A DNA stretch of 64,000 nt from an uncultured Planctomycetales bacterium (GTDB taxonomy: Bacteria; Omnitrophota; Gorgyraeia; Zapsychrales; JAHFFX01): the NCBI GenBank assembly GCA_964612665.1, contig CAZTCI010000004.1, positions 270,376-334,375 of the forward strand, in the 5' to 3' direction. Position numbers and translations under genes: made by a program. Shown in pieces: positions 2,116-37,275 of this stretch (positions within the stretch are counted from its first letter, which is position 1; each line of letters opens with the position of its first letter). Below the pieces are notes generated by a model. The model ran no database searches, had not been told where the DNA came from, and saw only the letters and a program-made list of their open reading frames with translations.

Positions 2116-2149
2116 CAAAGGAAATCAACTATGCTAGAGTTAACCCCAT

Positions 2150-3648: not shown

Positions 3649-3697
3649 AGCCGCCGGGCGCCCCGGAGACGATGTTATGGCGGCGCCGGGGCGCCCA
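3649..3697 (+). other. GC-rich structured element at the lptE/holA junction with two interleaved complementary segment pairs (gccgcc/ggcggc and gggcgcccc/ggggcgccc)
   Basis: Read from sequence. Pair a is 3650-3655 with 3679-3684. Pair b is 3656-3664 with 3688-3696. The order a-b-a'-b' is pseudoknot-compatible. The element overlaps candidate holA start codons at 3672 and 3677. Confidence 0.4.
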
Positions 3698-4403: not shown

Positions 4404-4420
4404 ATGAATAGGTGTTGCGG

Positions 4421-4461
4421 AAAAAATAAATGCTGCGTAATGGAGTTTACTTACGCAGCAT
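4421..4461 (-). terminator. rpsT intrinsic terminator: 11-bp perfect stem (atgctgcgtaa / ttacgcagcat) overlapping the stop codon, then a U-run on the minus strand
   Basis: Arms at 4430-4440 and 4451-4461 are exact reverse complements. The A-run at 4421-4429 on plus equals a T-run downstream on minus. Confidence 0.6.
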
Positions 4462-4714
4462 GAAGAAATTGTCGGCTGAAAACCGATTTACGTCGGGCAG
4501 CGGTATTTTTATGCAGGAGATTACGCTTGGCGGCTTTATCGATCTTTTTATAAAGAAGCTTTAGTGTTGATTGCGCTTCATTTTTATCTTTGGCTTCAAG
4601 CGCCGCCTTAAATTTCTTGATTGTCTTTTTAAGGTCGGTTTTAACATCCAAATTGTGTAAATGTTTTTTGCGATTGATACGAAGTGCTTTAATCGCGTTT
4701 CGTCTTTGCGGCAA
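4451..4714 (-). CDS. rpsT: 30S ribosomal protein S20
   Basis: MPQRRNAIKALRINRKK...KRNLLHKNTAARRKSV matches the S20 family. A TTG start at 4712-4714 is preceded by AAGGAGGTG and gives the expected 87 aa. The longer ORF-track start at 4789 is also a TTG with no Shine-Dalgarno. Confidence 0.7.
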   Translation of the reverse strand: MPQRRNAIKALRINRKKHLHNLDVKTDLKKTIKKFKAALEAKDKNEAQSTLKLLYKKIDKAAKRNLLHKNTAARRKSVFSRQFLHAA

Positions 4715-4782
4715 TGATATCACCTCCTTATGGCGCGAATTGTCGCGAAATGAGGCCATAATATACCAAAAGAGCCCCGAGA

Positions 4783-6375
4783 ATGTCAATCGATAAATCT
4801 TCCGTCCACGATTCCCACCGTTTTATCGTTAAATCTGCCTTTATCATCGCGTTAGGCACGCTGTTTTCCCGGATATTGGGATTTATCCGCGATATTATCT
4901 TGGCGAAATTTTTTGGAACAGCCTTTCGCGCTGATGCTTTCTTTGTCGCTTTTCGTCTTCCTAATCTTCTACGCGATTTAATGGGGGAAGGCGCGACCAA
5001 TTCCGCGGTGGTGCCGGTTTTTTCTGAATACATCAATAAAAAAAATCCCGAAGGCATGTGGCATTTTGTGAATGTGGTTTTGGTTTGGTTTTTTATCATT
5101 TTAACCGGTGCCTCTATTTTAGGAATTGTTTTAGCGCCGTGGATTGTTCCGCTCATTGCGCCTGGGTTTAAAGCTGACGCGCAAAAGATGCACCTTACGG
5201 TCCAATTAACTCAATTACTTTTTCCATATTTAATTTTTATTGGACTGACTGCCTACAGCATGGGCATTTTATATACGTTTCGATCGTTTGTTTGGCCGGC
5301 GCTCAGTCCGTGTCTGCTGAATATCGCGATGATTATTAGCGTTGCTTTCGCGGTTAAAAAAATGGATGAACCCGCCGTCGGGCTGGCCGTTGGTGTTTTG
5401 GTTGGAGGTTTTTTGCAGTTAGGGTTGCAGTTATGGGCTCTAAAGCGGATGGGAATGACCTTTACGATTCCCCGTGTTTTAAAACATCCTGGCGCCGAAA
5501 AAATTGGCAGACTGCTTTTGCCGCGGCTGTTCGGATCAGGTGTTTATCAGTTAAATGTTTTTATCGATACGTTGTGTGCTTCGTTGTCATCGATTGTTGG
5601 GCCCGGCGGAATTTCGGCGATTTATTATGCCAACCGGCTGATTCAATTTCCCCAAGGGATTTTTGGAATTGCTATGGTATCGGCGCTATTGCCGACTTTA
5701 TCCAGCTTTGTGGTTAAAAAAGATTATGAATCTCTTCGAAATACACTTTTGTTTTCTTTACGCAATATGTTCTTAGTGATGGTTCCAGTTTCTGTTATTA
5801 CGGGCGTCTTGGCAACGCCCATTGTCCGGGTTCTTTTTGAGCGGGGAGAATTTAATCAGGAATCAACCGCGATCACAGCCTGGGCGCTTTTTTGGTTTGC
5901 CCCTGGTCTTTTATTTTACGGTGTGACTCGGATCATGGTAAGCACCTTTCATGCCCTGCAAGATACGGTGACTCCGGTTAAAACCGCGGGAAGATGTCTT
6001 TTTATTAACGCCATTTTGAATTTTTGTTTAATGGTTCCTCTAAAAGTCGGCGGCATTGCGCTGGCCAGTTCAATTTCGGTTTTTGTAAACTTTACGATTC
6101 TATTTTGTTTAATGGATAAAAGGCTGGATGGGCTTAAAAGACCGCTTGTTGAATACGTAAAACGTTTAGGCATTGCCGGATTAATAATGGGTTTAGGCAT
6201 GTGGGCATTATGGAATCTTTTGAATTCCTCGTCGGAATCTATTAAAATAGCAATCGACTCTTTGTTTGGGTTAGCCTTATTTGTTGGCATGTGTTTAATG
6301 TTAGGCATTGAAGATATGAAAAAAATTTTAACCGAAACTTTACAGCGTTTAACGAAGATCTTTTCCAGCCTATGA
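4783..6375 (+). CDS. murJ: Lipid II flippase MurJ (MviN)
   Basis: N-terminus FIIALGTLFSRILGFIRDIILAKFFG...DAFFVAFRLPNLLR is the MurJ signature. About 14 TM segments. Adjacent to rpsT, as in many bacteria. Confidence 0.85.
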   Translation: MSIDKSSVHDSHRFIVKSAFIIALGTLFSRILGFIRDIILAKFFGTAFRADAFFVAFRLPNLLRDLMGEGATNSAVVPVFSEYINKKNPEGMWHFVNVVLVWFFIILTGASILGIVLAPWIVPLIAPGFKADAQKMHLTVQLTQLLFPYLIFIGLTAYSMGILYTFRSFVWPALSPCLLNIAMIISVAFAVKKMDEPAVGLAVGVLVGGFLQLGLQLWALKRMGMTFTIPRVLKHPGAEKIGRLLLPRLFGSGVYQLNVFIDTLCASLSSIVGPGGISAIYYANRLIQFPQGIFGIAMVSALLPTLSSFVVKKDYESLRNTLLFSLRNMFLVMVPVSVITGVLATPIVRVLFERGEFNQESTAITAWALFWFAPGLLFYGVTRIMVSTFHALQDTVTPVKTAGRCLFINAILNFCLMVPLKVGGIALASSISVFVNFTILFCLMDKRLDGLKRPLVEYVKRLGIAGLIMGLGMWALWNLLNSSSESIKIAIDSLFGLALFVGMCLMLGIEDMKKILTETLQRLTKIFSSL

Positions 6376-7649
6376 AAACGCAAACTTCTCTTTTAACCAA
6401 AATCGCTTTACTTCCTTTATCGAGCGGCGTTTATTTTATGAAAGACACTGAAGGGCGAGTCATTTATGTCGGCAAGGCGGTTTCAATCCGTAAACGTGTT
6501 CAATCTTATTTTAACCGCTCGGATAAGATTCTTTCCAAGACAGATCTATTGGTTTCCAACATTCAAGACGTAGATTATGTCTTGACGAGCTCTGAGGCCG
6601 AGGCGTTGATTCTAGAAGCCAGTTTGATTAAAGAATATCAGCCAAAGTTTAATATTGATTTGAGAGATGATAAAAGTTATCCGTACATTCAAATCACGAA
6701 CGACAAGTATCCACGCATCGCGGTTGTCCGCCCGGCGGTTAAACCAACAGCGCAGATCAATAAAAAAGATCCCAAACATACATACTATGGCCCATATGTG
6801 AACGCCCAGTTAATCCGCGAAGCCCTTGGAATTATTCGCAAAATTTTTCATTTTCGTACTTGTGAGCCTTTGCCCAAAAAAGCTTGTCTCGATTTTCATA
6901 TCGGGCTGTGCGATGCGCCGTGCATTGGGAACATTAATCAAGAAGAGTACCAAAAGATTATCAACCATGTCTGCTTAATTCTCGAGGGGAAGAAGGATGA
7001 GCTGTATCAGAACCTGCGCGCTGAAATGGAAGCCCACGCCAACGCGAACCGTTTCGAAGAAGCGGCCAAGGTGCGCGACCAGATTCGCGCAATTGGCGCG
7101 TTATATTCCGGAACGAAGGACATTAATTATTATAAGGAAGCCGAACAACTTCAGCGTCTTTTAAATCTACCTCGCCGCCCAGAACGCATTGAGGCGTTTG
7201 ACATTTCCAATATATTCGGGAATCAAGCGGTCGGTTCCATGGTTTCATTCTTAAATGGAAAGCCTGATAAAAATAATTACCGTCGTTTCCGCATCCGTGA
7301 AGTGGAAGGCATTGATGATTTTAAAATGATCGCAGAAGTGGTCCGCCGACGCTACCGGCGGTTGAAAGAGGAGCACCTGATTTTTCCAGATTTAATTTTA
7401 ATCGACGGGGGAAAAGGTCAATTGTCCGCGGCCGTTGAGCAATTAAATGCACTCGAAGTTAAAATTCCAATTATTTCATTGGCAAAACAAGAAGAAGAAA
7501 TTTTTGTCCCGTATAAACGCAATTCAATCCGGTTAGCGCATGATTCCCTAGGACTTCAATTATTGCAGCGTGTCCGCGATGAGGCGCATCGATTTGCCTT
7601 GAGTTATCACCGGAAATTGCGCAGCAAAAAAGTTTTTGAGCATAAATGA
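6372..7649 (+). CDS. uvrC: Excinuclease ABC subunit C (UvrC), short form with no C-terminal (HhH)2 domain
   Basis: GIY-YIG motif GVYFMKDTEGRVIYVGKA..KRVQSYF. Cys-rich region and UVR domain (FEEAAKVRDQIRAI). C-terminal endonuclease domain (ILIDGGKGQL, RDEAHRFA). Only 425 aa. Confidence 0.75.
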   Translation: MKTQTSLLTKIALLPLSSGVYFMKDTEGRVIYVGKAVSIRKRVQSYFNRSDKILSKTDLLVSNIQDVDYVLTSSEAEALILEASLIKEYQPKFNIDLRDDKSYPYIQITNDKYPRIAVVRPAVKPTAQINKKDPKHTYYGPYVNAQLIREALGIIRKIFHFRTCEPLPKKACLDFHIGLCDAPCIGNINQEEYQKIINHVCLILEGKKDELYQNLRAEMEAHANANRFEEAAKVRDQIRAIGALYSGTKDINYYKEAEQLQRLLNLPRRPERIEAFDISNIFGNQAVGSMVSFLNGKPDKNNYRRFRIREVEGIDDFKMIAEVVRRRYRRLKEEHLIFPDLILIDGGKGQLSAAVEQLNALEVKIPIISLAKQEEEIFVPYKRNSIRLAHDSLGLQLLQRVRDEAHRFALSYHRKLRSKKVFEHK

Positions 7650-7666
7650 TTTCTTTCTGCTGCATA

Positions 7667-7703
7667 CCTCAAGTTGTAGTTTGTGGCCTGTAGCTTGCAG
7701 GCC
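7667..7703. repeat. REP-like intergenic palindromic element, copy 1 (contains ttgtagtttg and the hairpin ggcctg-tagcttg-caggcc)
   Basis: Read from sequence. Related copies lie at 10741-10810 and 32569-32608. Confidence 0.45.
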
Positions 7704-7769
7704 AATCGCTCTTAAAAAATATCGATTTACTTTATGCGTTTCAAAAAATTTCGGTAGAATATTAACACT

Positions 7770-8849
7770 ATGCGTATCACTCATTTGTTCATGCAAATGG
7801 TCGCTCACGGGGCGTCGGATTTATTCCTGCGTATCAATTCCATGCCTAAGGCCCGTATCCACGGGAGGGTACGAATTATAGACACCCAACCGGTAACGCC
7901 TGAAGAAATGACCGCGATTACTAATTTTCTTTTAAGTACCGAAGAACGCAAGAAATTTTTTGCGAACAATATGGATATTGATTTTCTTTACAATGAGCCA
8001 GAGGTTGGACGTTTTCGCATTAATATTTTTCGCCAGCGCGGTACCCCCGCGATTGTGGCGAGGCATATTTATAGTCAAATCCGTTCTTTTGAACAATTGA
8101 ATCTGCCGTTGGATTTTCTAAAGAAGGTCTGTGAAGAATCGAGCGGCTTATTTTTAGTGTGCGGCCCGGCGGGCAGCGGTAAATCCACGGCAATCGCCAG
8201 TATGCTTGAATATATTAACCTGACCAGCGAAAAACATATCGTGACCATTGAAGATCCAATTGAATTTTTGTTTCAGGATAAAAAAAGTATTATTAATCAA
8301 AGAGAAATGGGATTGGATGTCCATTCGTATCCTGTTGCTTTAAGACAAGTAACCCAGCAAAGTCCGGACATTATTTTTATTGGCAACACGCGTGATAAAG
8401 AAACGATGGAAGCGGTTATAAACGCGACTGAATTGGGCGCTTTTACCGTGACGACGTTTCATACCGTTAACGCCGTGCAGTCGCTCCATCGGATTATTAA
8501 TTTTTTCCCGCCGCATCTGCATGATGAAATCCGGATTCAACTGTCTTTGCTTTTGAAAGGTATCATTTCGCTTCGATTAGTTCCGCTTAAAGACGGTTCT
8601 GGCCGTATTCCTGCCTATGAAACCGTTTATATCACACCCACCATCGCCCGTCTGATCCGTGAGGGGACGACCAAAGAAATCCAAGCCTATATTGATGAAG
8701 GTGAGCTTTTCGGCATGCGCTCTTTTAAACAATCGCTCGTGCGTCTGGTTAACGAAGGATGGGTTGATGAAGAAGATGCGCGCAAAGTTTCCGACAGCAA
8801 AGACGAATTCAATTTGGAACTTAAAGGCATCAGACGGTTTAACAAATAA
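7770..8849 (+). CDS. pilT: Type IV pilus retraction ATPase PilT
   Basis: Walker A GPAGSGKST. Motifs IVTIEDPIEF and the PilT/PilU-family C-terminus. About 360 aa. Confidence 0.8.
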   Translation: MRITHLFMQMVAHGASDLFLRINSMPKARIHGRVRIIDTQPVTPEEMTAITNFLLSTEERKKFFANNMDIDFLYNEPEVGRFRINIFRQRGTPAIVARHIYSQIRSFEQLNLPLDFLKKVCEESSGLFLVCGPAGSGKSTAIASMLEYINLTSEKHIVTIEDPIEFLFQDKKSIINQREMGLDVHSYPVALRQVTQQSPDIIFIGNTRDKETMEAVINATELGAFTVTTFHTVNAVQSLHRIINFFPPHLHDEIRIQLSLLLKGIISLRLVPLKDGSGRIPAYETVYITPTIARLIREGTTKEIQAYIDEGELFGMRSFKQSLVRLVNEGWVDEEDARKVSDSKDEFNLELKGIRRFNK

Positions 8850-17236: not shown

Positions 17237-17830
17237 ATGCTAGCTAAATTACGACGCTATTTCATCTCAGGGCTGATTGTCTTTCTGCCGTTGGCCTTAA
17301 CAATTAATCTTTTTATCTTAACAATCCAATTTGCCGACGGAATTTTGGGCCGGTATATTCAGCCTTATTTTTCACGTGAGTTTGGTTTTTATTTCCGCGG
17401 GTTAAGTATTCTTATCGCGGTTTTTATCATTTTGATAATGGGTGTGATTGTGACCAATTTTGGTCAGTCATTTTTCGCCCGCCTTGAACGATTTCTGCTC
17501 ACACTTCCCTTTTTTAAACAGGTTTATCCGGCCATCAAAGAGATGGCGGTTTTTCTGTTCAGCCGTGAAAAAATTACTTTTCAAAAAGTGGTTTTGATTG
17601 AATATCCTCGCAAAGGCGCTTACTCGATTGGGTTTTTAACCAATGATTCTCCGGCCAAGATAAATGCAAAGTTAAACCAAGAATTATGTAATGTATTTGT
17701 GCCCAGCACCCCGAGCCCGGTCACGGGATTTTTGGTTTTAGTTAATAAGAGTGAACTGATTTTCCCTGAGATCACTATTGAAGAAGCCCTGAAAATGGTT
17801 GTCTCCGGCGGAGTTATTGCACCGGCGTAA
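17237..17830 (+). CDS. DUF502-family membrane protein
   Basis: N-terminus FISGLIVFLPLALTINLFILTIQFADGIL is typical of the DUF502 (COG2928) family. Confidence 0.55.
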   Translation: MLAKLRRYFISGLIVFLPLALTINLFILTIQFADGILGRYIQPYFSREFGFYFRGLSILIAVFIILIMGVIVTNFGQSFFARLERFLLTLPFFKQVYPAIKEMAVFLFSREKITFQKVVLIEYPRKGAYSIGFLTNDSPAKINAKLNQELCNVFVPSTPSPVTGFLVLVNKSELIFPEITIEEALKMVVSGGVIAPA

Positions 17831-19149: not shown

Positions 19150-19326
19150 TCGAGCCTTTTACCAGGGAAGAATCTGTTGACTTTTCAAATGGTATTCAAT
19201 AAAATGGCTCCCTGAATTTTCCACACCTGAAAAAATTTGCTTTGAATGAGATCCCTCGCTGAAAAAAATAATATGAAGCTCGGGATATCAGCATTAACCT
19301 TTCTAAAAGGTATTAAGGTAGTTAAT

Positions 19327-19399
19327 GCCGAGATAGCTCAGGTAGTAGAGCGCAGGCCTGAAAAGCCTGGCGTCGCCAGTGCAAGTCTGGCTCTCGGCA
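19327..19399 (+). tRNA. tRNA-Phe (GAA), with an unusual T-loop (G instead of the near-universal U at position 55)
   Basis: Cloverleaf folded by hand. Acceptor gccgaga/tctcggc. D-arm gctc-aggtagta-gagc. Anticodon stem caggc/gcctg with loop ctGAAaa. T-stem gccag/ctggc with loop tgcaagt. Confidence 0.8.
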
Positions 19400-19496
19400 C
19401 TCTACTTCGCTCTAATACTTTCGTGTTGGAGCTTCGTAGCAGTAAACTCTTAAGAACTCTACTTCGCACCCAAGCAAATCTCATTCTATCCAAGAT

Positions 19497-19569
19497 GCCG
19501 ACGTAGCTCAGTTGGTAGAGCAGCGCATTCGTAATGCGCGGGTCGTAGGTTCAATTCCTATCGTCGGCT
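19497..19569 (+). tRNA. tRNA-Thr (CGT)
   Basis: Acceptor gccgacg/cgtcggc. D-arm gctc-agttggta-gagc. Anticodon stem gcgca/tgcgc with loop ttCGTaa. T-arm gtagg-ttcaatt-cctat. Discriminator t. Confidence 0.9.
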
Positions 19570-19607
19570 TTTATTTAGTGTTGAGAAATCTTTAGCTTAA
19601 CGAAGAA

Positions 19608-20144
19608 TTGGGGTACATGACCATATTCGTACTTTTGTTGTTTATATGCTTAATAGCATTAGCGACGGTCGCCTACCTATTAGTTGTCGACAGAAAATCC
19701 CAAACTCAGCAGCATACCGTTAATCCCCACTATATCCCAGAGACAAAAGCCCAAGTAGAAGAAGGCTATCACTCCCAAGAATCCTGGACACTCTCGTCTA
19801 TCCAAGAAGAATTTAACGACGTTAAGAATCAAATTCATCACTTTGATGAAATTCAACAAAAACCATCAAAGGGAGAGGCTTTAAAAGGATTTTTCTCTTA
19901 TGTTTGGTATTCTTTAAGACTTATGTTTAGAGAGAAAGCAATATTTACATTCGCTTTATTGCAATGGGCGGCGATAGGTACAGGATATTATTTGTGGGTT
20001 CAGATTATTGGGTGGATTCCTCGGGAAGTTTGGGAGAGCACGGAACATTCCCATAGTGGCTCAATTGCAGATATTTTTTTATTGTTGTGGTCTTTTGTTT
20101 GCGTAGGGATTGTAGCCTTTCCCTTAAGTATATTTTCTGCTTGA
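19608..20144 (+). CDS. Hypothetical membrane protein (3 predicted TM segments) in the tRNA-Thr-linked islet
   Basis: ORF with an N-terminal TM, a hydrophilic region of about 70 aa, then two C-terminal TMs. No recognizable family. Confidence 0.4.
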   Translation: MGYMTIFVLLLFICLIALATVAYLLVVDRKSQTQQHTVNPHYIPETKAQVEEGYHSQESWTLSSIQEEFNDVKNQIHHFDEIQQKPSKGEALKGFFSYVWYSLRLMFREKAIFTFALLQWAAIGTGYYLWVQIIGWIPREVWESTEHSHSGSIADIFLLLWSFVCVGIVAFPLSIFSA

Positions 20145-20248
20145 ACCCAGAATTAGAACAAGAGATTACAGCCCGCAAGCGCTCAATATTAAGGAGGTAA
20201 TCTACGTTTCTTTCTATCTTTGCTATTATTGTTTCAGTAGCTATTCCA

Positions 20249-20719
20249 TTGTGTTTTCAAGCTATTAGAGTATATGAAGTGCTCGATGTACGGAGCCCTA
20301 TTATTTATTCGCTATGGTGCAGTCTTCCCGTATTCATAATTTTTGCCATTGTACTGATTCAAAATTTTAGATCAAAGCCATTTCCCCATCGTCAATTAAT
20401 AGCAGGACTGATATTAGGTCTTATAAGCATTTCCGTGTTGACGTATACTGCCATTGCAACTTACAATGCAAAATGTGATAAGGGTATTATTAGTGAACAT
20501 GAGGCTTTAGTTGTTGATAAAACAATAGAGACGAGTAGCAAAGGCAATCGCAGCTACTATATTCACGTACCATCGTGGGGAAAGAGAAAGAAGTTTGAAG
20601 AATTTGAAGTTTCAAACGATGGTTACTCTACAATTACGGTTGGTTCGACAATGATGCGCATTCTAACCAAACCTGGAAAATTTGGATTTGAATGGCTGGT
20701 AAGAATAGAAAAAATCTAA
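20249..20719 (+). CDS. Hypothetical membrane protein (2 TM segments plus a soluble C-terminal domain of about 85 aa) in the islet; start codon uncertain
   Basis: The ORF-track start is a TTG. An AAGGAGG Shine-Dalgarno lies upstream at about 20193 with no in-frame ATG. No recognizable family. Confidence 0.35.
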   Translation: MCFQAIRVYEVLDVRSPIIYSLWCSLPVFIIFAIVLIQNFRSKPFPHRQLIAGLILGLISISVLTYTAIATYNAKCDKGIISEHEALVVDKTIETSSKGNRSYYIHVPSWGKRKKFEEFEVSNDGYSTITVGSTMMRILTKPGKFGFEWLVRIEKI

Positions 20720-20855
20720 CGGCAAACGACTTTCTGAAGGAGCACCGGATTTTTACACCGCTGCCCAGGTTTTTAAATCAATTTTTGGGAACTTTTACGC
20801 CAATTTAGTGCCTTGCACACGTCCCCAGGTTATTTTTTGAGTACGTTATAAAATG

Positions 20856-20906
20856 GAGCAGCGCATTCGTAATGCGCAGGTCGGGGTTCAATTCCCTTCG
20901 CCAGCT
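20856..20906 (+). repeat. Degenerate direct repeat of the 3' half of tRNA-Thr (putative att remnant)
   Basis: gagcagcgcattcgtaatgcgcaggtcggggttcaattcccttcgccagct matches tRNA-Thr 19517-19569 at about 43 of 51 positions. The anticodon arm is identical and the T-arm and acceptor diverge. The 5' acceptor and D-arm are missing. Confidence 0.6.
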
Positions 20907-21008: not shown

Positions 21009-22859
21009 TTGGAAATGTCATTACATAATCAAACCATATCATCCCAATCCTCAAGCTTCCTGAAATCTTCTTTGTGTCAAATCCTCATTATCATCACCCT
21101 CACCTTCAGCGCTTATTCGTTTATGGTCAGCGATTCGTTTAAGACGATGGATGATTATTATTCTATTATTGACGATCCTGATATCAGAAGTTTTGATAAT
21201 TTAGAAAAGGTTTTTCACCGGGGATTTTTTCGTGATCAATCATATTATCGTCCGCTGGTGATCACGAGTTTTATGCTTGAGTATCATTGTTTCGGTTTGA
21301 ATCCTTTTTTTTATTACCTAACGAATATTTTTCTACATATCTCAAGCGCGGTCGTGGTTCTTTACATCGCGCGGATGCTTTTGAATAATTCTTGGCAGAG
21401 TTTTAATGCCGCGCTTTTGTTCGGCATTCATCCGGTTCAAACTGAAGCGGTCGCTAACATTGCCGGGCGGTCGATTCTTTTGTGCGGTCTTTTTTCTTTG
21501 TTTGCGTTTTGGTTTTTCTTACTTTTTTTAAAACAGCGTCGGAAGATTCTCTATTTAAGTTCTTTGGGATTTTTTATCCTGGCGCTTTTATCCAAGGAGG
21601 CGGCCGTGATGCTGCCGGTTCTGATCTTCAGCTATTTGTTAATTATTTCTTCAACACAACAAAAACGGAATCGAGTGTTTGAAGCCTGTCTGCCGCTCTG
21701 GCCGTTTGCCGTTGTTTTGGGCGGTTATTTTTTTGTCCGTCATCACTTGGGAATTACCCATCTTTTTTATTGGCCGTCGCTGTCGGATTGGACCTTGGGC
21801 GTGCTAACGTTTGCTCGAGGAGTCATAACCTACTTGCGGCTTTTTATTTTTCCCGTTGATCTTCACTTTGACCGTTCACGCGTTGTCTTCCAAAGTTTTT
21901 ATAATATTGAAATTGGGGGAACCTTGCTTTTTTGGCTGCTTATTTTTATTTTGATAAGGCGGAAAAAATTGTCCCGGGAGATTTTATTTTCATTGAGCTG
22001 GTTTTTTATCGGGCTCTTTCCTGTTTCGCAGATAATAAGCTCCATTGGCGTTCAACCCGGGTCCATTTCGCTGGCCGAACATTTTCTTTATTTACCGTCG
22101 GTGGGCATCTTTATTTTAATGAGTGTGGTTTTTAAAGATGTTGATGCGTCTTGTTTGCGAAGACAGGTGATCCCACGGATTTCTTTATGGATTGTTGCCA
22201 TAAGTTTCGGCCTGTTTTTATTTTTAACAACCGTTCAAAACAATATCGCGATGCGGGATGAGAAAACAATGGTCGCCAGATCACTTGCGTTTGATCCGAA
22301 TAACAGCCGTCTGCTTTATGCGTTAGGCATGCTTGAGGTGAAAGACGCCCATTTTAATAAGGCGCAGAATATTTTCGCTAAAATTTTAACCTTGGATCCG
22401 GACAACGTTCGGGCGCGCATCGCGTTGGGCAAGAGTCTTTGTGATCAAGGAAAGTATTGGGAAGGTTTGCAGGAATATGACAAAGTTGGGCCAACGGATC
22501 CGCATTTACAAAAATTGTTGGATGATAACCGCTCGCGGACTTACGCGCTTTTAATTAAAAGATATGAAGACATCGTGAAGAACGATCCGCAAAATGCAAA
22601 AGCATATTACAGTTTGGGCGTCATCTATACTAAAATGAATCAATTGCCAGAGGCGATCGCTTATTATGAGAAGGCGGCCAATATCGACGCGCATTTCACA
22701 AACGCTTTATTTAATTTAGCTTCAACCTTGGAAGGCGTTGGCCGGCGGGAAGAGGCTAAGGTTTATTATGAACAGATTATGAATCAGCCTGACGTTGATC
22801 AATTTCAGAAGAATTATGCGACCGCTCATTTGCAAGCGTTAAACAAGCAAGGCCAGTAA
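21009..22859 (+). CDS. PMT/ArnT-like (TMTC-type) polytopic membrane glycosyltransferase with C-terminal TPR repeats
   Basis: About 11 N-terminal TM helices, then at least 4 TPR repeats in the last 200 aa (YALGMLEVKDAHFNKAQNIFAKILTLDPDN ..., AYYSLGVIYTKMNQLPEAIAYYEKA). This is the domain architecture of PMT_2/TMTC-like protein O-glycosyltransferases. Confidence 0.5.
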   Translation: MEMSLHNQTISSQSSSFLKSSLCQILIIITLTFSAYSFMVSDSFKTMDDYYSIIDDPDIRSFDNLEKVFHRGFFRDQSYYRPLVITSFMLEYHCFGLNPFFYYLTNIFLHISSAVVVLYIARMLLNNSWQSFNAALLFGIHPVQTEAVANIAGRSILLCGLFSLFAFWFFLLFLKQRRKILYLSSLGFFILALLSKEAAVMLPVLIFSYLLIISSTQQKRNRVFEACLPLWPFAVVLGGYFFVRHHLGITHLFYWPSLSDWTLGVLTFARGVITYLRLFIFPVDLHFDRSRVVFQSFYNIEIGGTLLFWLLIFILIRRKKLSREILFSLSWFFIGLFPVSQIISSIGVQPGSISLAEHFLYLPSVGIFILMSVVFKDVDASCLRRQVIPRISLWIVAISFGLFLFLTTVQNNIAMRDEKTMVARSLAFDPNNSRLLYALGMLEVKDAHFNKAQNIFAKILTLDPDNVRARIALGKSLCDQGKYWEGLQEYDKVGPTDPHLQKLLDDNRSRTYALLIKRYEDIVKNDPQNAKAYYSLGVIYTKMNQLPEAIAYYEKAANIDAHFTNALFNLASTLEGVGRREEAKVYYEQIMNQPDVDQFQKNYATAHLQALNKQGQ

Positions 22860-24324: not shown

Positions 24325-24606
24325 ATGATTAAAATACATGACGATGTGACCATGGTTGGCATTTCTGAATTACAAATGCATCCTGAAAAAATTCTTCAAG
24401 AAATCAAGAAGCATAAAGTTATTATCGGAAAACGTAATAAACCGGTTGCTGTTTTGTTGAATATGAAAAAGTATCGTCAAATGGAGACTACCTTGGACCT
24501 CTTGGAGAATTTTGCCCTAGGTTATTTGGCGAAGGACAGAGAAGTCCGTACGAAGAAATCTTATGTTGACATCAAAGACGCTTTGAAAAAAATTAAACAT
24601 CAGTAA
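24325..24606 (+). CDS. Type II antitoxin, Phd/YefM family
   Basis: MIKIHDDVTMVGISELQMHPEKILQEI..KPVAVLLNMKKYRQMETTLDLLEN fits the Phd/YefM fold pattern. An ATG at 24325 with a GAGAGGA Shine-Dalgarno is preferred over the longer ORF-track start. Confidence 0.6.
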   Translation: MIKIHDDVTMVGISELQMHPEKILQEIKKHKVIIGKRNKPVAVLLNMKKYRQMETTLDLLENFALGYLAKDREVRTKKSYVDIKDALKKIKHQ

Positions 24607-24612
24607 CCATTC

Positions 24613-24915
24613 ATGTGGCAAATCAAAATAAACCCGCTAGTTCTTCTTGAAGATTTTAAAAATATCGATTTACCTCAACAAAGAAACATTCTTAGGACCA
24701 TCCACAAAAAATTATCTGTTAATCCTAAAGCTTATGGCAAGCCGCTGACCGGTGAATTTTCAGGTTACTGGCGTCTTCGTATTGGCGATTACAGAGTTGT
24801 TTACCGTATCCTCAATGACCAAGTTGTTGTGCTTGTTATTAAGGTTGGTATCCGCAAAGATGACAGAGTTTATCGGGAATTATTTTCTAGATTGCGTCGA
24901 TTGAGCCGTCCTTAA
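24613..24915 (+). CDS. Type II toxin, RelE/ParE family mRNA interferase
   Basis: WRLRIGDYRVVYRILNDQVVVLVIKVGIRKDDRVY is the RelE/ParE signature. Sits 6 nt downstream of the antitoxin. Confidence 0.7.
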   Translation: MWQIKINPLVLLEDFKNIDLPQQRNILRTIHKKLSVNPKAYGKPLTGEFSGYWRLRIGDYRVVYRILNDQVVVLVIKVGIRKDDRVYRELFSRLRRLSRP

Positions 24916-31509: not shown

Positions 31510-31583
31510 CGCGGGGTGGAGCAGGCTGGTAGCTCGTCAGGCTCATAACCTGAAGGCCGCAGGTTCAAATCCTGCCCCCGCAA
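31510..31583 (+). tRNA. tRNA-Met (CAT), initiator-like (C1-A72 mismatch; near-identical to E. coli tRNA-fMet)
   Basis: cgcggggtggagcaggctggtagctcgtcaggctcataacctgaaggccgcaggttcaaatcctgcccccgcaa. An inverted-repeat-rich promoter region lies upstream (ccgcgtaaaatgaaat ... atttcattttacgcgg). Confidence 0.85.
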
Positions 31584-31596
31584 CTCTAACAAACGA

Positions 31597-31639
31597 AAGC
31601 CAGTCAGTGAGTTACATCATTGGCTGGCTTTTTTGTTTT
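31597..31639 (+). terminator. Intrinsic terminator after tRNA-Met (agccagtcagtga...tcattggctggc followed by ttttttgtttt)
   Basis: Stem-loop plus U-run. A closely related motif recurs at 38111-38148. Confidence 0.6.
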
Positions 31640-31686
31640 GTACTAAAATGGCTGCATGCTAATGCGGTGCTAATGTTCGCGTCAGA

Positions 31687-32357
31687 TTATTTTAAGTTTT
31701 CCCAAAAAAGTCCATAACGGGAAAGCAATTTTTTTAACCGGTTCGCATCATTGATGTTTGTTCTGCGTTGTCTTGAAGCTGAGTAGAGAATCCGTCCGGC
31801 CTCGGATAGGCTTCTTGATTTGCGGCATATTTTAATCACTTCTGCTAATTCAACCTTTTCTATATGGTCCATTGCCTCAATTGAGGCAGTGCTTAAGATT
31901 TCTTCTAATAAACTTGAGTCGTTACTTTCTTGAGATTTTTTTCATAGATTAAGAAGTCGTTGGATTTCTTGTTCGACGATATCGACGTCAATTCTTCCAC
32001 CGGCGGCTAATGTTGCCATTCGCGTAATGGCAGCATTCAGGTCTCGGAAGTTCGCGGTCCACGCTACTTTTTCTGATTTGGCGAATTTTAAGAATTTTTC
32101 CTTTGCTTCTTTGTTAAAAGTAATATTGAGTCCGTGATCTTTGGCGAATTTGTCTAATTCATATTGTAAATTAGCCTCGATGTCTTCCCATCTTTCTTTA
32201 AGGGCCGGCAAATAAAACGTCCATAAATTTATTCTGGTATACAGGTCCTCTCTAAAATTACCTTTCTGAACTTCTAACCCAAGATCGCGATTAGTTCCCG
32301 CAATCAGTTGAAAATCACTTTTAATTTCTTTATCAGCTTCGATTAGAGCATTTAATC
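31687..32357 (-). pseudogene. Remnant of a sigma54-dependent (NtrC/RtcR-like) transcriptional activator: C-terminal AAA+ half and Fis-type HTH, frame-disrupted and N-terminally truncated
   Basis: Manual translation gives ..IAGTNRDLGLEVQKGNFREDLYTRINLWTFYLPALKERWEDI.. (the sigma54 activator AAA+ signature), bounded upstream by an in-frame TAA. A separate ORF at 31687-31872 carries the HTH tail (SEAGRILYSASRQRRTNINDANRLKKLLSRYGL). No Walker A or N-terminal domain was found. Confidence 0.5.
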
Positions 32358-32568
32358 GCTTCAGATTTCCGTGTTAACACTCCTGCTGACACCTGCCTGC
32401 CGACGGGCAGGAGGTAAGCTTAAGTAGGGCACAAGCGATAATAGCAAATGGGTTTATTCTTCGGAGAGAGACAGCAAAAAGTTAGCTGGTTATTTGAGTC
32501 AGAATTAAGTAGAATAAAAGAAGTTTTTATTTTATTAAAAATTACAATTGCTGAGTAACTTATAAGGA

Positions 32569-32608
32569 ATCCGTTAGGCTTCAAGTTGTGTCGGCTAGCG
32601 GATTTTTA
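32569..32608 (+). repeat. REP-like element, copy 3 / terminator-like hairpin (atccgttag...ctagcggat followed by tttttattttt), containing aggcttcaagttgtg
   Basis: Read from sequence. Shares aggcttcaa and caagttgt with the elements at 7667 and 10741. Confidence 0.4.
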
Positions 32609-32638
32609 TTTTTAGGTTATAAAATGGGGCCGATTTAA

Positions 32639-32965
32639 ATGCACGAAATGGCTTATAAAGTGAAAGCGGATTTTTTGAGAGTTTTGAGTCATCCTGTTCG
32701 TTTGAAATTAATTGAAGAACTTAAAACAGGCGAAAAAAGTGTGGGGCATCTTGTCGCCAAATTAAAGATGGGGCAATCGAATATTTCCCGTCATCTTTTG
32801 GCTTTACGCAATGCCGGAATATTATCGTCCCGCCAGGAAAAGACAGTTGTTTACTACGATATCGCTGACCACGATATTTTTCATGTTTTACGTCCTATCG
32901 CCGTCATGCTTCGCAAAAAGTTTAAAGAATCAGAAAAGGTGTTTAGGACTTTAGGCAAAGACTAA
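32639..32965 (+). CDS. ArsR/SmtB-family transcriptional regulator
   Basis: Winged-helix motif LSHPVRLKLIEELKTGEKSVGHLVAKLKMGQSNISRHLLALRNAGIL. Confidence 0.7.
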   Translation: MHEMAYKVKADFLRVLSHPVRLKLIEELKTGEKSVGHLVAKLKMGQSNISRHLLALRNAGILSSRQEKTVVYYDIADHDIFHVLRPIAVMLRKKFKESEKVFRTLGKD

Positions 32966-33101
32966 TCTTTTCATTCCCGCCACAGGATCCTCTTGTCTCT
33001 ATTTTGATCCCCAATATTTTTAGTGTTTATTCTTGACATGAGAATAATGTATATACTAATATGCAAATATTAGAATATTTAAATAAAATAAAGGAATATC
33101 T

Positions 33102-34445
33102 TTGCGGAATCTATTTTGCAATCCGGGGACCTATTTAGCTCTTTTTCTTTTAACTCCCACCACTTCATTTGCCGAGATTAACCACAAAGAATTTCTCTCC
33201 ACCGACTTCATCCAATCTTTTCAGAAACAAGAATACGAAAAAGCTATACAAGAAAGCGATGCACTTCTTAAAAAGTATCCCAATGATCCTCTTGTCCTGC
33301 GTTATCGGGCGCTTACTTTAGAAAAACTTCATCATCCTGATCAAGCCATAAATCTCTACCATGAAATTTTAGCGGCTCATCCTAACGATGAGCCGACACG
33401 TTTATTCTTAGGGTTGACTTATATAAGGGAAGGGGAAAATCACAAAGCCGCTGAAGAACTGCATCAGGTCGTTGAGCATAGCCACTTGCCAGAATACCGG
33501 CATTGGGCGCAGGAGCAATTAGACCGTTTGCATTCATACGAAATTTCCGTCGGCAAGTCTATCCATAAGAAAGCTTATTTTGTTGGGAAAACAGGAATTA
33601 TTTATGACAGCAATCCTTTGCTTATTCCCGATAATCAAAGTTTGTCGTCGACAGAAAAGAATCCTGCGGCGCTGTATGAATTTGAATTGAGCGCCGGATA
33701 TCCGTTGCGGTTGGAAAAAGATTTTCGTTTGGATGCTTTGTATATCGGCGAAACATATCAGCATAGTCATGGCGCTCAGAGTGTTGATTTCACATCTCAG
33801 GGCTTTGCTTTGGATGCTAAAAAACGAACCTTTGCTGGCAGGCGTCCATTTTTGTTGAGTGGCCGATATGATTTTCGCGCGAACTTTTTAAGAAGTGACC
33901 TGTTTTCGATCGTTAATCGGTTTTATGTCAGCGCGGACACATCTTTCTGGCACAAAACGCTCACCAATTTCTTTGCGCGTTTTGCTGTTTCCAATTACGG
34001 TCCCGATGGCGCTAATCCCGATCAATCCTCGCGTGATGGCATTCGCGAAGGCATTGGTGTAACGCAATATTTTTATACCAAAAATCGTAAAAGCTTTTTC
34101 TTCATCAAGGGCGAAGGTGATTTCAATCAAACCCGCGGAGAGAATTTTAATCGTGAAGGTGCGCTCGCCACTATCGGTCTTCATACACCATTTTTTTATA
34201 AAACTGATTTGGATGTGTCTAGTTCATTTAATTGGGGCGTTTATCCGGACTTTACATCGTTATCGTCATTGGATCCGAGCGAACGGCGTGATAAAGGCTG
34301 GGATGCTTACGTCGGCGTGACGCATCATTGGAAGCCAAGTCTTGCGACACGGGTTTTTTATCGTTTTATCAATTCGGATAATAGCAATAATTTATTGGAC
34401 AGTAGCCGGCATCTGGCTGGTTGGGAAGTCATCTTCTTATTTTAA
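33102..34445 (+). CDS. Outer-membrane protein with N-terminal TPR domain and C-terminal beta-barrel (Slam/DUF560-like or PgaA/BcsC-like architecture)
   Basis: Signal peptide ending SFA. TPR repeats over about 120 aa. C-terminal half has alternating-hydrophobic strands and the canonical beta-signal ...GWEVIFLF (terminal Phe, hydrophobics at -1, -3, -5, -7). Confidence 0.45.
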   Translation: MRNLFCNPGTYLALFLLTPTTSFAEINHKEFLSTDFIQSFQKQEYEKAIQESDALLKKYPNDPLVLRYRALTLEKLHHPDQAINLYHEILAAHPNDEPTRLFLGLTYIREGENHKAAEELHQVVEHSHLPEYRHWAQEQLDRLHSYEISVGKSIHKKAYFVGKTGIIYDSNPLLIPDNQSLSSTEKNPAALYEFELSAGYPLRLEKDFRLDALYIGETYQHSHGAQSVDFTSQGFALDAKKRTFAGRRPFLLSGRYDFRANFLRSDLFSIVNRFYVSADTSFWHKTLTNFFARFAVSNYGPDGANPDQSSRDGIREGIGVTQYFYTKNRKSFFFIKGEGDFNQTRGENFNREGALATIGLHTPFFYKTDLDVSSSFNWGVYPDFTSLSSLDPSERRDKGWDAYVGVTHHWKPSLATRVFYRFINSDNSNNLLDSSRHLAGWEVIFLF

Positions 34446-34446
34446 T

Positions 34447-37275
34447 ATGCCTAACAAAATAAAAAATATAGAAGCGATCATCTTTTGCGGGATTTTATTG
34501 TGTATGTTTCTTTCTGTTTCTTCGGTATCGGCTGAGGACAGGAATGTTGCGGTCGACCAGAAGATAGGCGGCATGGAACAAGGACGGCGGATTCAATCGC
34601 CAGGGAATTACAATAATAAGGGGATAACCTCTGGTGAACCAGGAAGTACAACAACACCGGCGCATGATATCCATACGCTTTCGCAAGAATCCCAAAAAGC
34701 GGAAAGCTCTCAAGGAAGGAATATTTCCAATGGTGGGAATCATGGATTTCTTTATGTTCAGGGGCAAGCGAGCAATTCTGCGGACAATCAAAATGGGACT
34801 AATCAAGCCAGCCGCGAACAAACAAATGGCCTGCCTGCCGGACAGGCAGGTTCAACAAGTGCCAATACAAGCCAATCCCCGACGGGACAAGAAAATAGTT
34901 CTCCCAATGTAGGGAGCAGTCAGTCTGGGACTGGGCAATCCAACGGATCGGCAACTGTTAATACTGGTGAAACGCCGACGGGACAAACTGGCTCAGCGCA
35001 TGTGAGTACGGGTGAAACGTCGAGTGGGCAGACAGGTGGATCGGTCAACGTAAATGCGGGACAAACGGGCGGATCATCTGAAGTCAATGTCCCCTCGACG
35101 GGAACTGAACAAACCAGTGGCTCTGTTGGAACTGGAACAGTCCAAACAACAACCGGGCAGATTACGAATCCTGTCAATACAGGATCTCCTGGTACTACAG
35201 CTCCGACAGAAACATCTCCGACGGGACAAATTGAGACCGGAGAAACTCAAACGGGAAGCGGGAATTCAGGAACGAACACGGAATCGTCGGGAACTTCGAA
35301 TAATCCGATCGTTAGTGTTGATGCCAATGTCAATCCGAATTCGGGAGCAGCTGATACGAGTGTTCATACCGATACCAGCGGCCAGTTGGAAGATCGACAA
35401 ATCATTGATGCTGGTGCGACAACCGGACAAACATCGACTCAAACAGAAACAGGCAGTGCGAGTGGAATTACTGGATCCGAAATGGTTCACCAAACTGATA
35501 TAACGATACAACCAGTTGCCCAAACTACACAACAATTTGGAACAACAACTCCCAACACAACGGAAACAAATGTAGGAGCCGGCAATGGTGGAATTATCGT
35601 CGGAGGAGAAACGTCTCCGACCGGCCAAGTCGGAATAGGAGAAACTCAAACGGGAAGCGGCACTTCGCCGACAACAACAGAATCATCGGAAAGTTCAAGT
35701 AATCCGATTGTAGGCGTTGATGTGAATGCCAATCCGAATACAGGAGAAGTTAGTACCGGCATTCGCACAGATACCAGCGGCCAACTGGAAGATCGACAGA
35801 TTATTGATGCAGGCGTTGCTACCGGGCAAACAGAATCAACAGGAACTCAAACAGGCAGTGCGTCACAAATTACCGGGTCGGAAACGATCCATCAAGCGGA
35901 TGTAACAACACAACCAGTTGCCGACGCTGCCGGTCAAACGGGAGACACGACAACAAATGTTGGAACGGGCAACGGCGGAGTTTTGGTTGGCGGAGAGACA
36001 TCGCCGACGGGACAAGTTGAAGCTGGAGAAACTCAAACAGGAAACGGCCCTTCGCAGACAACCACAGAGTCATCCGGAACTTCAAATAATCCCATTGTGG
36101 CTGTCGATGTAAATGCAAATCCGAATTCGGGAGCAGTTGATACTGGCGTTCATACGGATACGAGTGGTCAGTTGGAAGACAGGCAAATCATCGACGCTGG
36201 TGCAACGGGAGAACATACGGGGTCGACTGGAGTTCAAACCGGCAGTGCATCACAGATAACCGGATCCGAAACGGTTCACCAAACTGATCTAACGACACAA
36301 CCTGTTACCGAAGCCACTGGACAAACAGGAACAGGGGAAGTGACAACGAGTACCGGCAATGGTGGAATTCTCATCGGTGGAGAAACATCACCGACGGGAC
36401 AAGTGGGCACGCAAGAAAATATCGGAGGCAGTTCAAGGACAACGCAAGAATCTTCGTCGGGAACTTCTAACCCAATTGTTGATGTTGAAGCTGGTGTCGA
36501 TCAAAATTCAGGAATGCCTCATGCCGAAGTCACTCTTGACACCAGCGGTGAGCTTGAAGAAAGACAAATTCTTGACGCAGACTTAACAGGAGAAACGACG
36601 GGTTCGACGGGCGCGGAAATAGGCGGCGCGACCGATATTACAGATGCAGATCTCGTTGAAGAAGCAGATATAACAACAGAAGTAGTGGGTGGCACAATAG
36701 GTCAAACTGTCCCAGATCAGATCAGCGGTTCAACAAATGGCGGAACTAGTTCTGGTTCTCAAACGCATACCGAAGAATCTTCCAGTACTTCAAGTAATCC
36801 TATCGTTGATATTGGAACAAATATCAATCCCGAATCCGGCACAGCTGATGTCAACGTCGGTGTAGATACAAGCGGTGAACTTGAAGACAGACAAATTTTA
36901 CAATTGGATTTAGCCGCAGACGGCGTTGGTTCCGGAGTAGAAACAGGCAGCGCCTCAGGTATGACGGGATCAGAGACTGTTCATGATGCCAATGTCACAA
37001 CAACACATGTCGCGACGACAGAACAAACGGTTAGCAGAACTTCAGAAACTCAAACGGGAACGAGTGGGATTTCCTCCGAAACACAAACGAGTGGCACCGT
37101 CGAAAGTATAATTTCGGCTCCCGCGGATTTCGGTGCAGAAATCGACACGACCGGTCAGACGGCCGGTGGAGAAGCCGATGTCGGAATAGCGGCTGAGGTT
37201 GATGGTGTTGGTGAAGGTGCTGATGTTGCGAGCGATCCTGCCGACGGACTTTCTACAGGTGGTCCCGGTCTTTAG
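34447..37275 (+). CDS. Large secreted Ser/Thr/Gly/Gln-rich repetitive protein (about 942 aa) with about 5 tandem 125-130-aa modules
   Basis: Signal peptide MPNKIKNIEAIIFCGILLCMFLSVSSVSA (start at 34447 preferred over the ORF-track 34342, which overlaps the upstream gene). Repeat module: GETSPTGQ..GETQTGSG..SNNPIV.VD.N.NPNSG..DT.VHTDTSGQLEDRQIIDAGAT..QTGSASQITGSETVHQTD.TTQPV. Confidence 0.6.
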   Translation: MPNKIKNIEAIIFCGILLCMFLSVSSVSAEDRNVAVDQKIGGMEQGRRIQSPGNYNNKGITSGEPGSTTTPAHDIHTLSQESQKAESSQGRNISNGGNHGFLYVQGQASNSADNQNGTNQASREQTNGLPAGQAGSTSANTSQSPTGQENSSPNVGSSQSGTGQSNGSATVNTGETPTGQTGSAHVSTGETSSGQTGGSVNVNAGQTGGSSEVNVPSTGTEQTSGSVGTGTVQTTTGQITNPVNTGSPGTTAPTETSPTGQIETGETQTGSGNSGTNTESSGTSNNPIVSVDANVNPNSGAADTSVHTDTSGQLEDRQIIDAGATTGQTSTQTETGSASGITGSEMVHQTDITIQPVAQTTQQFGTTTPNTTETNVGAGNGGIIVGGETSPTGQVGIGETQTGSGTSPTTTESSESSSNPIVGVDVNANPNTGEVSTGIRTDTSGQLEDRQIIDAGVATGQTESTGTQTGSASQITGSETIHQADVTTQPVADAAGQTGDTTTNVGTGNGGVLVGGETSPTGQVEAGETQTGNGPSQTTTESSGTSNNPIVAVDVNANPNSGAVDTGVHTDTSGQLEDRQIIDAGATGEHTGSTGVQTGSASQITGSETVHQTDLTTQPVTEATGQTGTGEVTTSTGNGGILIGGETSPTGQVGTQENIGGSSRTTQESSSGTSNPIVDVEAGVDQNSGMPHAEVTLDTSGELEERQILDADLTGETTGSTGAEIGGATDITDADLVEEADITTEVVGGTIGQTVPDQISGSTNGGTSSGSQTHTEESSSTSSNPIVDIGTNINPESGTADVNVGVDTSGELEDRQILQLDLAADGVGSGVETGSASGMTGSETVHDANVTTTHVATTEQTVSRTSETQTGTSGISSETQTSGTVESIISAPADFGAEIDTTGQTAGGEADVGIAAEVDGVGEGADVASDPADGLSTGGPGL
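35200..36950 (+). repeat. Coding tandem repeat array (period about 330-390 bp, about 5 units) inside the Ser/Thr-rich protein gene
   Basis: DTSGQLEDRQIIDAG-encoding segments recur at about 35371, 35772, 36153, 36539 and 36867. Confidence 0.7.

Follow-up and report, generated by a model that had tools for sequence, protein, structure and literature searches.

The 64-kb window analyzed here (64,000 nt of contig CAZTCI010000004.1 from an uncultured, Omnitrophota-like bacterium, assembly GCA_964612665.1) carries at 19497–20906 a small islet, in which a tRNA-Thr(CGT) gene is followed by two open reading frames (ORFs), here called ORF1 and ORF2, and by a degenerate direct repeat of the tRNA's own 3′ part. 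We consider it probable (roughly 0.6) that this islet is a relic of DNA which was site-specifically integrated into the 3′ part of the tRNA-Thr(CGT) gene and has since decayed and become immobile. Its interior (19570–20855) is a lineage-specific insertion, which is missing at the corresponding locus of two related genomes (loci L007 and L006). ORF1 is a 3′-truncated member of a large protein family (family A), and ORF2, which belongs to a second large family (family B), has no canonical start codon ahead of its first helix. A reading of the letters alone, hereafter the sequence-only reading, had proposed an intact, compact two-gene cassette at this site; the truncation and the missing start codon speak against it. 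The features of the islet and its immediate surroundings are as follows:

19327–19400, plus strand: tRNA-Phe(GAA), the conserved left neighbor at this hot spot, called by ARAGORN and Rfam; the order tRNA-Phe to tRNA-Thr is also found in L007 and L006.
19497–19569, plus strand: intact tRNA-Thr(CGT), on the side of the left attachment (att) site, attL; called by ARAGORN and Rfam (71 bits).
19570–20855, no strand assigned: inserted DNA of 1,286 bp, absent at the syntenic loci of L007 and L006.
19617–20144 (start at 19608 or 19617), plus strand: ORF1, a 5′ gene fragment with codons 1–175 of family A, here membrane proteins of 410–425 aa, assigned by homology to protein P0027 and locus L086.
20144–20203, plus strand: junction and leader, with an in-frame TAA (20198–20200) and a Shine-Dalgarno-like AAGGAGG (20191–20197).
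20204–20719, plus strand: ORF2, a short-form member of family B with three transmembrane (TM) helices and a C-terminal β barrel resembling the oligonucleotide/oligosaccharide-binding (OB) fold; 171 codons from ACG.
20753–20834, plus strand: two copies, 60 nt apart, of the 22-nt motif TTRCACNNNTSCCCAGGTTWTT (73% identity), in the non-coding stretch before the tRNA fragment.
20856–20906, plus strand: partial tRNA-Thr copy (positions 22–73), on the attR side, found by alignment and blastn-short; acceptor strand CGCCAGC.
21009–22859, plus strand: native downstream gene for a 616-aa membrane protein with TPR repeats, whose homolog directly follows tRNA-Thr in L007.

An insertion between tRNA-Thr and its native neighbor

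The empty-site relatives were obtained by searching species-representative genomes with the downstream 616-aa protein. L007 belongs to a metagenome-assembled genome (MAG) of Candidatus Omnitrophota, whose version of this protein is 41% identical, and L006 to a MAG labelled as uncultured Planctomycetales (44%). With L007 the window shares the order of 12 genes between 13819 and 30622, and with L006 that of 8 of these 12. In L007, genes for a HAD hydrolase and a 133-aa protein are followed by tRNA-Phe, tRNA-Thr(CGT), 146 nt of spacer and the homolog of the 616-aa gene; in L006, 61 nt separate tRNA-Thr from the next large gene, and an extra 618-aa ORF precedes the homolog of the 616-aa gene. Nothing resembling ORF1 or ORF2 was found in these two colinear loci. 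Since tRNA-Thr adjoins the next gene in both relatives without either ORF, the islet is an insertion, and the proposal that foreign DNA had entered at tRNA-Thr is borne out in this respect. The flanks consist of syntenic housekeeping genes, and the GC content of the insert (0.36–0.39) differs little from theirs (0.40–0.47). Logan contigs were also considered as population variants without the islet, but none of them differs from the window in sequence, and their breaks simply fall within the conserved core of the tRNA.

The interval between tRNA-Phe and tRNA-Thr is itself variable, because its length differs between the window (96 nt), L007 (604 nt), and L006 (about 6 kb, at 2105–8020, including a 1326-aa ORF). 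The locus also singles out the tRNA-Phe/tRNA-Thr region of Omnitrophota-like genomes as a variable hot spot. Around the same spacer of the window, an exact 12-nt direct repeat, ACTCTACTTCGC, occurs at 19399–19410, abutting the 3′ end of tRNA-Phe, and 57 nt further on at 19456–19467, within the 96 nt that precede tRNA-Thr; it may be the trace of another small insertion or may have arisen by chance. An 86-aa ORF at 19246–19506, which is called as a gene in the Logan annotation and spans tRNA-Phe into tRNA-Thr, is almost certainly spurious.

The tRNA-Thr gene and its partial copy

The resident tRNA-Thr has the acceptor stem GCCGACG/CGTCGGC and the T stem GTAGG/CCTAT. At a distance of 1,286 bp from its end, the partial copy aligns with its 3′ 52 nt (positions 22–73); 45 positions match, 6 are mismatched, and a single nucleotide is gapped. 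No difference occurs in the first 22 nt, which cover the 3′ strand of the D stem together with most of the anticodon arm, and all changes are confined to the variable loop (one, G44 to A), the T stem (one plus the 1-nt gap in the 5′ strand, two in the 3′ strand), and the acceptor strand (two). In a blastn-short search against the whole 64-kb window, the first 41 nt of the partial copy gave an E-value of 3e-9, so that a chance match can be dismissed. Beyond both 3′ ends, 12 of 21 nt still match in register (shuffle p about 0.008). Rfam did not score the partial copy as a tRNA even at E ≤ 1, as expected of a dead partial copy. The tRNA and its degenerate 3′ repeat had been recognized in the sequence-only reading, and ARAGORN, Rfam, the alignment, and blastn-short all agree with it on this point. 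Such a layout, in which an intact tRNA marks one border and its 3′ part recurs as a direct repeat at the opposite one, is that of a tRNA-integrated island. The two TTRCACNNNTSCCCAGGTTWTT copies ahead of the repeat may be leftover arm-type recombinase sites.

Which of the two tRNA copies is native to the locus is less straightforward. In both L006 and L007, the acceptor stem of tRNA-Thr is GCTGGCG/CGCCAGC; the strand CGCCAGC is kept by the fragment and not by the working tRNA, in which the pairs 3:70 and 5:68 are altered on both strands, and it is unable to pair with the resident 5′ acceptor strand. The T arm of the fragment (G-GGG...CCCTT) would pair into a proper stem on the assumption that its G run has lost one G, and the change at 51:63 is compensated, with A-U in the resident tRNA and G-C in the fragment. 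Furthermore, the fragment differs at 7 positions from the resident tRNA, and at 5–6 positions from the tRNAs of L007 and L006. Judged by the compensated T stem, the acceptor strand of the relatives, and these counts, the fragment derives from a different functional tRNA-Thr and not from the resident gene by drift. The idea that the repeat is an att site of foreign origin thus holds insofar as the copy comes from a different tRNA-Thr, but the acceptor strand typical of the relatives sits on the fragment, not on the working tRNA. The locus offers a small natural example of a dead tRNA fragment that carries the relatives' acceptor strand next to a working gene whose own stem is different and fully compensated.

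These observations are compatible with three histories. Firstly, the crossover could have taken place inside the tRNA, in the anticodon region; the native 3′ end would then have been displaced and survive as the fragment, the working gene having obtained its 3′ part from the element. The first hybrid would have contained the wobble pairs U3-G70 and G5-U68, to be fixed later by two transitions in the 5′ strand. Secondly, with a crossover at the extreme 3′ end (in the shared GCTTT), the working tRNA would be wholly native and the fragment element-borne. Thirdly, a recombination patch could have brought in a whole foreign tRNA. In this case, a donor segment from an Omnitrophota-like genome, with its own complete tRNA-Thr of the GCCGACG type, would have replaced the 5′ part of the native tRNA-Thr. 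One end of the patch would have been formed by homology, at tRNA-Phe or in the conserved tRNA core, and the other illegitimately at native tRNA position 21/22, leaving the native 3′ 52 nt behind.

Such a patch, which dispenses with site-specific integration, is unlikely but has some points in its favor. It would explain without extra mutations that both acceptor strands of the working tRNA differ from those of the relatives, while the fragment shares its strand with them and still occupies the ancestral place ahead of the 616-aa gene. It would also account for the absence of an integrase, for a repeat that begins at position 22, unlike the tRNA-Met and L005 repeats described below, which begin at the anticodon loop, and for the spacer of 96 nt between tRNA-Phe and tRNA-Thr as against 604 nt in L007. 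However, the closest full-length family A genes (in L086 and L087) do not lie beside tRNA-Thr, and a donor arrangement of tRNA-Thr followed by a family A gene was not seen in about 70 loci. The in-register similarity of the 21 nt past the 3′ ends, at its p of about 0.008, fits the identity of att sites better, and classical islets flanked by tRNA fragments occur both in the same window and in other genomes.

ORF1 is the 5′ stub of a family A gene

Both ORFs of the sequence-only reading exist (19608/19617–20144 and 20249–20719). Its statement that they have no recognizable family is true for the curated libraries, but both proteins belong to large uncharacterized families, for neither of which a relative with a solved structure was found by sequence. 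For ORF1, a word-based search returned longer homologs only, and a profile search delineated family A, with at least 424 clusters at E ≤ 1e-5 and 66 metagenome loci. Its core proteins have 350–365 aa, or 410–435 aa where an N-terminal extension is present, and they are encoded as hypothetical proteins also in cultured Gammaproteobacteria and Planctomycetota. No conserved gene neighborhood was found across the loci of the family.

ORF1 is closest to P0027 (420 aa), with which it shares 64.6% identity across residues 1–175 of both proteins. At the nucleotide level, ORF1 is 74% similar to L086, and this similarity ends abruptly at position 20143 of the window. At the junction, the window reads ...GCT TGA ACC CAG AAT TAG, as opposed to ...GCT TGC ATG GGG GC... 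in the family, and nearly all family loci encode Cys at the position of the ORF1 stop codon, followed by MGAxH. Because the homology stops at 20143 and the family continues with a Cys codon, the TGA at 20142–20144 was made by the rearrangement junction. ORF1 thus lacks the CMGAxH motif and the C-terminal half of the full-length family core, about 245 residues in all, and amounts to a 42% stub of the 420-aa protein; tblastn with the longer homologs yielded no trace of this C-terminal half anywhere in the 64-kb window. In 15 of 51 full-length family members, the C-terminal half matches PF10110 (GPDPase_memb) below threshold (best E = 2.5e-5), and this region, residues 261–393 of P0027 and the only one with Pfam-level similarity of any kind, falls within the part that is missing from ORF1. 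The stub has almost certainly lost its function.

The alignment of the TGA with a conserved Cys raised the possibility of selenocysteine, which was rejected, as the homology ends at the TGA and a TAG follows 3 codons on. A family A homolog in L016 has a TGA at exactly the codon where ORF1 is cut (506–512); this 512-nt contig ends 2 nt later, and the TGA could reflect coincidence, a recombination hot spot, or an assembly artifact. Over 11 nt, the ORF1 junction (TTGAACCCAGA) is complementary to the T arm of the tRNA fragment, which was judged to be a chance match.

ORF2 lacks a canonical start codon for its first helix

A word-based search with ORF2 found only ORF2 itself, and an exhaustive HMMER search recovered 564 representatives at E ≤ 1e-3. 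Most proteins of this family B have about 385 aa, in which an N-terminal helix precedes a soluble domain of ~190 aa, followed by three helices and a β domain ending in TKPGxxGFEW, with the last ~160 residues matching ORF2. Natural short forms, which start just before the first of the three helices, are represented by P0213 (167 aa) and P0241 (192 aa). The AlphaFold2 model of the 172 codons from 20201, based on an alignment of 94 sequences, is predicted with high confidence (predicted local distance difference test score, pLDDT, 95.2; predicted TM-score, pTM, 0.83) and comprises helices at residues 2–24, 31–56, and 62–91 and a six-stranded barrel. In a Foldseek search against the PDB, the barrel matched OB folds only, with E-values from 1e-3 to 1e-1; among them were the DUF2500 domains 3q6c and 3rd4 (target TM-score about 0.6) and domains of SSB, RPA, and LEF-3. 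Read from 20201, ORF2 thus has the three helices and the barrel with the terminal TKPGxxGFEW motif that characterize family B, and it keeps N89, W126, and G159, the three invariant positions, as well as most of the nearly invariant ones.

Helix 1, however, lies upstream of every ATG, GTG, and TTG in frame. The frame opens after the TAA at 20198–20200, and the strong Shine-Dalgarno-like AAGGAGG at 20191–20197 sits 6 nt before an ACG (20204–20206). Both canonical starts, TTG at 20249 (156 aa) and GTG at 20279 (146 aa; the start chosen by gene callers), follow helix 1, and a tblastn alignment with P0125 runs back through the TAA to 20177. The sequence is the same in four independent assemblies, so the ACG is not a sequencing error. 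The simplest explanation is that ORF2 once stood alone as a short-form gene and that a mutation turned its ATG into ACG. Probably it lost its activity in recent times, or else its expression is weak at best; since the invariant and most nearly invariant residues are kept, any inactivation would have to be recent or incomplete.

Alternatively, ORF2 alone might be a live accessory gene, translated from the ACG or from the downstream TTG or GTG and kept for a useful protein with three TM helices and an OB-like domain, the rest of the islet being junk. We think this rather unlikely. The retained residues, the confident model (pLDDT 95), and the AAGGAGG 6 nt ahead of the ACG would all suit a live gene, as would the closest homolog, P0124, which is an intact short ORF of 48% identity. 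On the other hand, ACG is not recognized as a bacterial start codon, the canonical starts would cut off helix 1 and with it a part of the confidently modeled fold, an in-frame TAA stands just upstream, and family B has no known function.

P0124 is encoded at L084 (109–1569) and measures 168 aa from an upstream ATG (1063), including helix 1. Its gene directly follows that of an IS4/IS5-type DDE transposase, and the first 33 residues encoded by the gene after it look like PurM. A 5′ boundary common to ORF2 and this homolog was considered and discarded, as the upstream nucleotide similarity is not significant (p = 0.54).

No integrase and no support for a two-gene defense module

Neither an integrase nor an integrase fragment was found in the islet or its flanks; the insert contains only ORF1 and ORF2, and neither matches recombinase families. 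Inspection of the sequence and repeats of 20717–20855 revealed no attC-like palindrome of the kind expected for an integron cassette, and scans for promoters and terminators gave nothing beyond shuffled expectation. A viral or prophage origin was rejected: families A and B are both absent from the IMG/VR viral contigs, the only viral match of the tRNA 3′ end is a phage-encoded tRNA-Thr(TGT), which is irrelevant here, and the fragment-type tRNA sequence has no viral match at all.

The sequence-only reading had regarded the pair as a working two-gene membrane module for abortive infection, defense, or toxin immunity, with the short ORF1 and ORF2 acting together, and had suggested profile and structure searches of both proteins and a search for the same pair in defense islands of other genomes. 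The former brought to light families A and B and the OB-like barrel of ORF2, but no match to a defense protein: in PADLOC-DB, none of ORF1, ORF2, P0027, P0126, and P0124 had a match at E ≤ 0.1, and no meaningful score was obtained with PHROGs or NCBIfam for ORF1, ORF2, or their full-length relatives. As for the pair, a family B match was present in 0 of about 70 family A loci, and the combination of ORF1 and ORF2 was seen in this genome only, with no second example among 5.8 billion clusters; it is not a conserved two-gene module.

The small tRNA-linked format with two co-oriented membrane ORFs would be appropriate for such a module. Family A also moves about in tRNA islets and, as a cassette of one gene, in integron-like arrays, and defense genes are often found in such a setting. 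In addition, short forms are natural in family B, and the family A sequence of L016 ends with TGA at the very same codon as ORF1. Nevertheless, a working module appears highly improbable, for ORF1 ends at a homology breakpoint without the 245 conserved C-terminal residues that include the PF10110-like part, ORF2 has no usable start codon ahead of helix 1, the two families are never together in other loci, and the PADLOC and cluster searches offer no support. The value of the locus therefore lies mostly in a clean negative: what looks like a compact defense or toxin cassette is a scar of gene remnants that has been gene-called as two hypothetical proteins.

Mobility of families A and B in other genomes

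Elsewhere, genes of family A were found in several mobile contexts. L005 contains at 838–3877 a 2.9-kb islet bounded by a minus-strand tRNA-Arg(TCG) gene and by a near-identical repeat, at least 57 nt long, of the 3′ part of this tRNA, spanning from the anticodon loop to past the tRNA 3′ end. The islet comprises a family A gene and a 450-aa ORF without Pfam match, and has no recognizable integrase. L018 and L022 share with L005 only the family A gene (95–96% nucleotide identity), and their flanks are unrelated. In L004 (53–2481), two 5′ fragments of 17 and 39 nt lie upstream of an intact tRNA-Ser(TGA) and bracket a family A gene followed by a RibD_C gene; this unusual layout suggests stacked insertions on the 5′ side of the tRNA, with the proviso that many genes of this contig are split and that it may be error-prone. 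L033 (195–3854; also L032) has five attC-like repeats of about 63 nt (TAACAAA...AAACGTTA), spaced 583–1252 nt apart, in an array of co-oriented small ORFs. The family A gene of this locus (291–1346) lies between two of these repeats and is thus a single-gene, integron-type cassette. In L087, a family A gene is placed amid ordinary biosynthetic genes, and a tRNA is nearby in only a few of the family A loci.

Altogether, in other genomes both genes show the behavior of mobile cargo, in keeping with a mobile element as the source of the islet. It is conceivable, albeit quite unlikely, that family A, and perhaps also the 3TM-OB family B, constitutes a class of uncharacterized single-gene mobile cargo that moves in integron-type cassettes and in small integrase-less islets with tRNA fragments (the window, L004, and L005). 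It would be mobilized in trans by resident recombinases and confer phage exclusion or another envelope-level benefit, the window holding a dead copy. Regardless of this scenario, two large membrane-protein families that lie outside every curated library have been flagged here; one of them is clearly horizontally mobile, and its intact members could merit study.

Proposed history of the islet

According to the favored history, an element with a copy of the tRNA 3′ portion would have recombined with the tRNA-Thr gene by site-specific integration, giving an intact tRNA on one side and a partial copy beside the native downstream gene on the other. Deletions or rearrangements would then have removed the recombinase and most of the cargo, so that what remained of the 5′ end of gene A was joined to the gene B leader, and the non-functional tRNA copy would finally have drifted. 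The repeat, the insertion relative to L007 and L006, the truncation of ORF1, and the lack of a start codon in ORF2 are directly visible, whereas entry by means of an integrase, the sequence of the decay events, and the loss of function are deduced. The literature offers precedents. Partial tRNA genes are a pervasive trace of integration (PMC9897764), integrated elements decay to att-flanked, integrase-less cis-mobilizable elements (CIMEs; PMC5704250), and tRNA-linked islands with degenerate remnants and scattered partial tRNAs have been described (bioRxiv 10.1101/2020.12.28.424599). The islet is a well-known and ordinary kind of feature.

Several points weigh against this history. With no integrase at the site, the mechanism of recombination is deduced from geometry alone. 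The resident tRNA and the one implied by the fragment differ on both acceptor strands (3:70 and 5:68); a crossover in the anticodon loop would therefore have produced a hybrid acceptor stem with two G-U pairs, requiring two later substitutions, unless the crossover was located at the very 3′ end. The gene adjacent to the tRNA is of the cargo type, whereas in many tRNA islands the integrase occupies this place. Moreover, the empty site is defined by two fairly distant relatives, with 41–44% identity in the neighboring protein, and ORF2 may still be functional in view of its conserved invariant residues and its intact closest homolog.

Other features of the window

A second tRNA-anchored islet is located at 31510–37406, where a tRNA-Met gene (31510–31584) is accompanied by a 44-nt copy of its positions 32–75 at 37363–37406 (91% identity, E = 6e-11). 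The enclosed 5.8 kb harbor an 89-aa AAA_lid_14 gene fragment on the minus strand, a gene for an ArsR-type helix-turn-helix protein, a gene for a 447-aa TPR protein, and a 977-aa ORF without Pfam match; no integrase was found among the five ORFs of this islet scanned with Pfam. Between the genes for an MFS transporter and a formyltransferase, the window encodes a Phd/YefM-ParE toxin–antitoxin pair (24325–24915), which is absent from the colinear loci L007 and L006. A DUF502 gene at 17237–17830 is not found at that position in L007, where the only similar gene (26% identity) follows tRNA-Met; this points to a local rearrangement relative to L007.

Comparison with known systems

At the level of the encoded proteins, the barrel of ORF2 superposes on that of DUF2500 (PF10694; 3q6c and 3rd4) with a Foldseek probability of 1.0 and a target TM-score of about 0.6, and both proteins are anchored in the membrane by helices. 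However, ORF2 scores 13–17 bits (12.9–13.8 bits when compared with the gathering threshold), well below the Pfam cut-off of 33.5 bits, and has three helices and different motifs (TKPGxxGFEW), so that the resemblance is confined to the fold. Family A likewise recalls PF10110, the membrane domain of glycerophosphodiester phosphodiesterases, in the C-terminal half of the 15 of 51 full-length members mentioned above, but every score checked was below the curated cut-off, and the matching part is the one that ORF1 has lost.

With respect to its architecture, the islet resembles the integrative elements and islands that target tRNA genes by means of tyrosine-recombinase att sites (Reiter, 1989; Williams, 2002; as cited in PMC9897764). 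It has an intact tRNA at one end and a 3′ direct repeat at the other, the insert is missing in relatives, and the identity of the repeat appears to reach slightly past the tRNA 3′ end. In contrast to these elements, it has no integrase or excisionase, its insert measures only 1.3 kb, and its repeat is degenerate (45/52) and starts at the D stem and not at the anticodon loop or T loop. Furthermore, the acceptor stems of its two tRNA copies are mutually incompatible.

A further parallel is provided by the tycheposon islands of Prochlorococcus (bioRxiv 10.1101/2020.12.28.424599), which are also tRNA-linked hot spots with partial tRNAs and fragments of former elements, and more than one such site (tRNA-Thr and tRNA-Met) is likewise present in the same genome region here. 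The islet has, however, neither a recombinase of the tycheposon type nor a replication module, stems from a different phylum, and has no link to that element family.

Another counterpart is offered by the CIMEs, decayed integrative and conjugative or integrative and mobilizable elements (ICEs and IMEs) that keep attL and attR and have lost the genes for integration and transfer (PMC5704250). CIMEs were defined in ICE families of Firmicutes and possess att sites that still work (PMC5704250), whereas the att copy of the islet has diverged and acquired an indel, which makes mobilization in cis doubtful, and no cognate element is known. Yet, like a CIME, the islet is flanked by att-like sites, one of them degenerate, around DNA devoid of recombination and transfer genes, and it has most likely arisen by the decay of an integrated element.

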